DNA of 64,000 nt, taken from positions 32,922,001-32,986,000 of the forward strand of contig OZ024759.1 of NCBI GenBank assembly GCA_964016885.1, written 5' to 3'. The stretch is from Eledone cirrhosa (Eukaryota). The notes beneath the pieces were generated by a model. The model had not been told where the DNA came from, made no database searches, and saw only the letters and a list, made by a program, of their open reading frames with translations. Shown here in pieces: positions 12,269 through 12,687 of this stretch. The number at the start of each line of letters is the position of its first letter. Within the stretch, counting starts at the first letter, position 1. The translations under genes and the position numbers were made by a program.

Positions 12269-12272
<4 letters not shown>

Positions 12273-12687
12273 CGGCGATGAATTAGTTTTGCGAGGTTTT
12301 TGATATGAAATCGTGTGTCGAAATAAATATTGTTATATTTGGGGAGGGTCATATTGTTGTAATAACATTGCCAGAATTAATAACAGAACACATTCTGTTT
12401 GGTTGGTTTTCGCTTCTGTGTCTTTTATATCAGTTAATTTAATTCATTCGGTCCCCAATGTTGCCATTGACTGACCAACGGTCAAAAATACAGATGCAAT
12501 ATAGACACAAATACATATATATAGTCTAACAAAGTTCTTTCGTTGCATATCTGCAACATCGTCAGTGGTGCTATTCTGTTTCCCCCCGTTGTATTGTATG
12601 CTTACGCCATCTTTATTTAGTCTGTTTAGTGTGTTCTGTTATTAATTCTGGCAATATTATTACACAAATATGACCCTCCCCAAGTAT

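Follow-up and report, generated by a model that had tools for sequence, protein, structure and literature searches.

Penelope-like insertions of Eledone cirrhosa that end at two positions inside the start of their own gene

The origin of the one-sided tails and inverted arms of Penelope-like elements (PLEs) is an open question in the field. A tail that carries the start of the ORF is itself an ordinary, published PLE trait (parts of PMC3846280 and PMC11167929). In the EN+ Penelope elements of Adineta vaga, as given in part of Arkhipova 2013 (PMC3846280), the pLTR holds the first 12 codons of the ORF (22 with the tail), the tail lies on one of the inverted pLTRs, and Asn-rich inserts occur inside intact ORFs. 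For PAc, a Poseidon element of Anolis, the tail ends correspond to two reverse transcription starts inside the ORF, both target strands are cleaved and extended, and the relevant portion of Frangieh 2024 (PMC11167929) found no homology between primer and template. Portions of Craig 2021 (PMC8557442) give a one-sided 30-40-bp tail, a (TA)n preference, and canonical C-terminal-nuclease PLEs without a fingers insert. Minimal hammerheads were described in part of Cervera and De la Pena 2014, and eight PLE clades are still given in part of a 2026 preprint.

Here we analysed a window of 64,000 nt of Eledone cirrhosa (GCA_964016885.1, contig OZ024759.1, positions 32,922,001-32,986,000, forward strand) and searched the genome for relatives of two element families, A and B, that it contains. 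The elements belong to the EN+ Penelope-like elements. They are 5'-truncated insertions whose 3' ends carry the first 26 or the first 84-86 nt of their own gene. Judging from the sequences, they likely arose when both strands of a (TA)n target were nicked and the RNA was primed twice internally.

Window insertions and the gene start that they carry

One family A copy in the window is an inverted insertion between (TA)n runs at 12211..12271 and 12692..12733. Its long arm, on the minus strand, consists of a tail holding ORF codons 1-28 (12269..12352, +1..+84), whose final TAT merges with (TA)n, and a 5'-truncated pLTR part of ~278 nt upstream of the ATG (12353..12630). The partner arm of the same insertion lies on the plus strand at 12628..12695, with its ATG at 12670 and its end at +26. 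A second family A inverted insertion (32151..32324) has a plus arm with its ATG at 32243, its end at +84 and a 2-nt deletion, and a minus arm (32151-32220) with the short end. Family B is present as a plus-strand single-arm copy (20469..20722, ATG 20637, long end +86), an inverted insertion (53182..53721) whose minus arm has its ATG at 53207 and ends at +26 and whose plus arm has its ATG at 53636 and ends at +86, and a plus-strand tail-only fragment flanked by two TA runs (48721..48772, end +86). The short ends at 12670 (+) and 53207 (-), which are inverted partner arms, had been missed in the preliminary description.

A minimal hammerhead motif (CUGANGA, 6-bp stem II, GAAA) is predicted at 12538..12565 on the minus strand, at 20479 in the single-arm B copy, and at 53358 (-) and 53475 (+) in the inverted B insertion. 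The predicted core lies at -223 (A) and -175 (B) relative to the ATG, and stem II carries two compensatory pair changes between the families. Two focused Rfam scans returned no hammerhead match, the 12538..12565 motif included, and among the 150 of 568 window-wide Rfam matches listed there were only miRNA-like ones below the gathering score.

The window holds other repeats as well. A repeat pair at 31826-32067 (+) and 50205-50445 (-) is 89% identical, with hammerhead-like cores at 31948 and 50325. Inverted pairs of other repeats occur at 11888-12218, 18231-18360 and 31570-31711; the first flanks a TA run, adjoins the target of the family A insertion, has a CTGATGA core on both arms and matches DNA in locus L201, and the second matches loci L198/L207. 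An abundant SINE-like family of 160-190 bp lies at 13849-14018, 20992-21232, 30745-30933, 32723-32856, 37155-37599, 51837-52110 and 54957-55081. At 1431-1808 there is a decayed C-terminal fragment, which we take to resemble an RTE-type LINE.

The tails had been proposed to encode a conserved protein N-terminus. The 28 residues at 12352-12269 (-) read as claimed, and the reading enters the (TA)n at 12211-12271. An agreement of 21/27 residues between A and B holds for the family majorities; single copies agree at 20/27 residues and 61/81 nt. We recovered all nine synonymous codon pairs that had been listed (CCC/CCA, ATT/ATC, CGA/CGT, ATC/ATA, AAA/AAG, AAC/AAT, CTC/CTT, GCA/GCT, CGT/CGA) and one further pair at Lys5 in the 12352 copy. 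The 32243 copy, which had been given as a second in-frame A reading, has no in-frame read-through because of its 2-nt deletion. Of the B copies, 20637 has Pro at residue 2 and 53636 has Leu at residue 27. The upstream DNA, called far more diverged, is indeed more diverged (201 matches in 379 columns over the upstream 330 nt), yet it is still homologous, with an A-B alignment score of -23 compared with -50 +/- 8.5 for shuffled sequence.

The claim of purifying selection on a parent ORF stands, with an A-B dN/dS of 0.14-0.24, not near 1. Between single-copy tails there are 10.5 synonymous differences in 17.6 sites and 9.5 non-synonymous differences in 63.4 sites (dN/dS 0.14; Fisher test on rounded counts, p = 0.0014), and either shifted frame is interrupted by stops and agrees at only 12-13/26 residues. 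For the longer gene, dN/dS is 0.23 at codons 1-245 and 0.15 at codons 420-845, with synonymous sites near saturation.

That many copies keep the frame and an ATG could be taken to mean that the 27-aa peptide itself functions in the short copies as a small ORF or exapted exon, a reading that we regard as highly improbable. In 24 B tails that were not selected by peptide, the private changes were 13 non-synonymous (one a stop) and 1 synonymous, which does not depart from neutrality (p = 0.33, with a share of 0.20 expected to be synonymous); the frame meets no stop before the (TA)n, and copies within the window are damaged. A functional small peptide in the short copies is thus largely refuted. 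Because A and B are constrained against each other while short copies decay neutrally, selection is placed in the source elements, with the qualification that the short copies are neutral, unconstrained and without useful product.

The parent gene and its lineage

A search of the 3.0-Gb genome gave ~37,700 first-look candidates for each peptide, of which 150 were scored. Frames longer than 1,000 aa were found in 11/150 scored A matches, and the seven copies fetched encode 1,206-1,211 aa. Six of them differ at 5-20 of ~3,630 nt (0.1-0.6%) and the seventh by ~3%; because six are near-identical, we regard family A as young. None of the 150 scored B matches had a frame longer than 1,000 aa; one B copy (L076) has an open frame of 864 aa that includes the RT catalytic motif and is ended by a frameshift, the rest of the gene lying in other frames. 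The 27-28 codons are thereby confirmed as the opening 84-86 nt of the 1,206-1,211-aa ORF. The preliminary inference that they begin a PLE ORF is supported and largely already known, since copies extend into a long ORF with RT and a GIY-YIG-type nuclease. The suggested I-x-x-RYG-like N-terminal motif also has its counterpart: full-length A continues as IHRRYG, and the canonical PLE matches P0107 and P0108 open with x-x-x-YG.

The family A ORF has a likely helical N-terminus, an Asn-rich stretch, the RT (DK motif at 504, motif A at 654, motif B at 786, YVDD at 826), a Cys linker (1077-1093) and, at the C-terminus, a GIY-YIG-type nuclease (1098-1192). A single ORF thus contains the RT and a GIY-YIG nuclease with CCHH and R/H/E/N residues (aa 1077-1192), and the top Atlas match is a GIY-YIG cluster (13% of members). 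The Asn-rich stretch is 49% Asn over aa 246-412 in A (L031:3277-3777) and 31% over aa 248-430 in B (L076). The two stretches are in frame and in the same place with different sequences, and are absent from the long relatives, which have 4-9% Asn overall. In both A (L036) and B (L076), the long end is closely followed by a small hairpin whose loop begins with UAGC (ORF +84..+105), with a 6-nt offset between the families.

Pfam detected nothing in the whole family A ORF, nuclease included, and gave weak calls in relatives, and a PDB sequence search returned two weak RT matches; because Pfam barely detects the RT of A and its relatives, the lineage is likely under-annotated. A model of aa 421-1210 (pLDDT 90.7) matched telomerase RT in the top 14 VIA hits and the top 2 Foldseek hits (best Z 16.0, rmsd 3.5, 274 aligned). 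The N-terminal 253 aa, folded without an alignment, gave no usable model (pLDDT 40). The closest named relative is an Octopus vulgaris protein with 68% identity. Pieces of A-type RT are also fused in the gene models P0102 (dynein regulatory complex subunit 6-like, Octopus vulgaris) and P0106 (THAP-domain protein, Stylophora), possibly as annotation artefacts.

The RT has an insert of ~70 residues between motifs A and B, with conserved residues and confident modelling. The Gly of motif B follows the Asp of motif A at a distance of 131-143 aa in 73/73 aligned relatives (137 in Holothuria members), compared with 62-67 aa in the 114 measurable of 120 comparison matches and 65 aa in a short-linker family of the same genome. 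Counts made by eye or hand on parts of the Craig 2021 supplement (PMC8557442) gave ~67 for the C. remanei row and, in Fig. S1, ~122 for human TERT and ~88 for a Naiad. The resemblance of the insert to that of telomerase is confined to size and position, the fold searches giving no residue-level match to the telomerase IFD.

As expected of PLEs, the RT is closest in structure to telomerase RT, and a tree of PLE rows only places the lineage among PLE sequences. In this tree (57 rows, 380 columns, insert columns dropped, LG+G4; three intended rows excluded by motif cropping), members of the lineage form a single clade (100/100) with a stem of 1.55. Its sister group is the short-linker PLEs (96/89), whereas the Penelope/Poseidon-like and Neptune-like rows fall elsewhere; long-branch attraction could contribute. 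The grouping with short-linker PLEs has 100/99 and 96/89 support, with group labels taken from motifs and no named Nematis row, and protein searches likewise returned no named Nematis reference. The Cys linker follows CX2-5CxxC with a spacer of 6-11 aa, mostly 7, in the 58/73 rows that match the pattern, like the Nematis rows of Craig Fig. S2. The lineage is nevertheless not filed under Nematis, because Nematis fingers have no insert between motifs A and B. It has neither the long Cys linker nor the RT type of Neptune; Neptune-type families in this genome, whose linker is much longer, form separate branches. The nuclease is C-terminal, not N-terminal as in Naiad and Chlamys, and the 4.1-kb unit, long insert and different motif B (by eye against part of Craig Fig. 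S7) separate it from Hydra.

Two other kinds of PLE were seen in the genome. A third family (L196-L207, L105) has a short Cys linker and canonical fingers and is Nematis-like by motifs, and several Neptune-type families (L238-L245, L208-L237) have long linkers and ORFs of 938 and 1,096 aa.

Two fixed ends and their pairing

In a sample blind to the tail (654 kb: 59 spaced 10-kb stretches plus the window), we identified 35 ORF starts. Those of family B ended at +26 (n = 13), +86 (n = 12) and +32 (n = 1), those of family A at +20 to +26 (n = 5) and +84 (n = 3), with one read-through, and 31/34 terminal ends lay at +26 or +84/86. Genome counts are given for the forward strand only, reverse gapped-pattern counts being inflated by repeated matches. 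Family B had 5,065 short ends, 7,012 near +63..92 and only 47 near +37..66. The long end of family A was split between 1,607 near +47..76 and 2,594 near +68..97; by hand count, 42/46 listed places of the former end at +68..72. Family A thus has an extra end at +69/71, and there are minor ends at +19/20.

All major ends of A and B fall on TA-alternating template stretches of 2-4 nt that merge with the target. The longest such stretch in A (+47..51, 4-5 nt) was used in 0/46 listed places, which argues that position dominates over the TA match, and B seldom uses its own TA matches at +51, +64 and +71. From these coincidences we lean slightly towards pairing between primer and template TA bases at the ends. 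An alternative in which the start is fixed at +23 and +83 and matching bases are absorbed by chance accounts equally well for the two families. Further families had been considered as a test of whether ends move with the TA match; their divergent matches were old decayed copies, and the test rests on A and B. On single contigs of two other organisms, TA runs follow +26 and, in one case, +84, a weak observation. The overall RNA fold of the tail region was not significant against shuffles.

As in PLEs, the units (4,145 and 4,067 nt) stand in full or partial tandem, which gives pLTRs, and there is an inverted 5'-truncated arm; any target-site duplication would be masked by the (TA)n target. Of 71 inverted pairs, 4 were removed as duplicate loci and 3 as tandem repeats of a single insertion, which left 64. 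They comprise 63 short-long pairs, 1 long-long pair and no short-short pair. Candidates rejected by the filter included two further short-long pairs, a long-long pair split by a nested element (L190) and one that is not a single insertion. With these cases, one short and one long end were found in 65/67, the long-long exceptions being L008 and L190, and in these 65 a tail at one end overlaps the ORF start, as in other PLEs, with 58-60 nt compared with 30-40. Most loci were chosen by searches for one end type; the pairing held in 9/9 unselected pairs and in 15/15 pairs (30 loci) picked by the short end. Ends without a partner, of which the first pass gave 68, belong to single-arm copies or extend beyond the sequence fetched. 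The strict asymmetry of the pairs suggests that one RNA is engaged at two sites.

At L190:2330-3400, a LINE-like RT fragment is nested in an inverted A insertion with two +71 ends and a hairpin junction. At L176 and L177, 4-5 whole inverted A insertions are repeated head to tail (period ~290-313 bp) with TA runs between; an interpretation of these 300-bp arrays as retrozymes was rejected, the repeats being whole inverted insertions.

The relative lengths of the arms bear on how they arose. The short-tail arm reaches further upstream in 36/63 pairs and the long-tail arm in 26/63, and the junction overlap is -1 to +6 nt in 36/64 pairs. Self-priming from junction palindromes was proposed in part of Arkhipova 2013 (PMC3846280), and a cDNA primed at the long site could stall and copy itself, or antisense RNA could prime itself, to yield the inverted arm. 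Arms within 10 nt of equal length (9/64 pairs) and L190, with its hairpin junction and two long ends, are what such fold-back predicts. Since a fold-back copy cannot exceed its template, the 36/63 pairs whose short-tail arm carries sequence absent from the long arm (1,451 compared with 5 nt in L020) point to two priming events on RNA in most insertions. For most pairs fold-back could hold only if the first arm had been lost to large deletions; it may account for a minority of insertions, and as the general origin we judge it very unlikely.

The main rival to paired priming is nuclease trimming, in which both arms begin at the long site and one is later cut back to +26 on resolution. Part of Craig 2021 (PMC8557442) ascribes the one-sided tail to EN-mediated resolution, the site at +26 alternates T and A as the target does, and trimming likewise predicts one short end per insertion. 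It requires an extra step, however, and leaves the minor ends at +19/20 and +69/71 unaccounted for, and the portion of Frangieh 2024 on a Poseidon element (PMC11167929) maps both tail boundaries to RT starts in vitro. We consider trimming unlikely, if less so than fold-back.

For paired priming, we suggest that tandem 4.1-kb units are read through to give an RNA with a pLTR followed by the next ORF start, to which the protein would bind. One nicked strand would prime at +84/86 (in A also at +69/71) and the other at +26, the 2-4 TA-alternating template bases probably aiding annealing of the (TA)n primer. Both cDNAs would stop early and then be joined in head-to-head orientation, in most cases overlapping little or not at all.

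Comparison with known Penelope-like systems

We found no combination of a C-terminal nuclease with a telomerase-sized insert in the literature searched, though Repbase or Dfam may have the lineage catalogued. Nor did we find there a paper on Penelope-like target-primed microhomology with GIY-YIG, or on Penelope twin priming as here. A tentative and rather doubtful wider reading is that A and B represent an undescribed ninth PLE lineage (octopus, sea cucumber, many marine contigs) with both features, which primes in a telomerase-like way, the cut (TA)n end pairing with 2-4 template bases and one dimer on one RNA starting two cDNAs 58-60 nt apart. If true, it would account for one-sided tails and head-to-head arms across PLEs. 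A PLE with a C-terminal nuclease and a telomerase-sized fingers insert bears on whether the insert is ancestral to PLEs and telomerase. With tens of thousands of copies having two sharp ends, near-identical intact sources and a simple target, this genome makes the rival mechanisms directly testable.

As with the Adineta vaga Penelope elements, described in part of PMC3846280, the pLTR contains the first ORF codons, the tail is one-sided and there are Asn-rich stretches. Unlike those elements, the pLTR holds 8-9 codons and the tail runs to codon 28, the tail is 58-60 nt compared with 31, the Asn-rich stretch precedes the RT, and there are tens of thousands of copies, in (TA)n. The A and B elements resemble PAc in having two ends within the ORF start, in their AT-rich targets and tandem loci, and in a hammerhead motif near the ATG, and their sequences suggest that they work like PAc, with paired internal starts. 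According to the same portion of PMC11167929, PAc starts without homology to the cut DNA and without strand preference, whereas here the major ends lie on TA-alternating bases and are almost strictly paired; the PAc clade is without the Cys linker that the A/B lineage has.

The C-terminal nuclease, the reduced CX2-5CxxC linker with a 7-residue spacer and, by eye, the stretch before the linker resemble Nematis, but the published rows, in the part of PMC8557442 that shows them, have no fingers insert and MG in motif B, whereas the A/B lineage has ~70 extra residues, IG and a very long stem. As in the Naiad and Chlamys PLEs and in telomerase RT, extra residues separate motifs 3(A) and 4(B) of its RT, and like the Naiads it prefers (TA)n and occurs in octopuses. 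Unlike Naiad and Chlamys, whose nuclease is N-terminal, whose insert is ~20-40 aa and which are mostly without hammerheads, it combines the long insert with a C-terminal nuclease.
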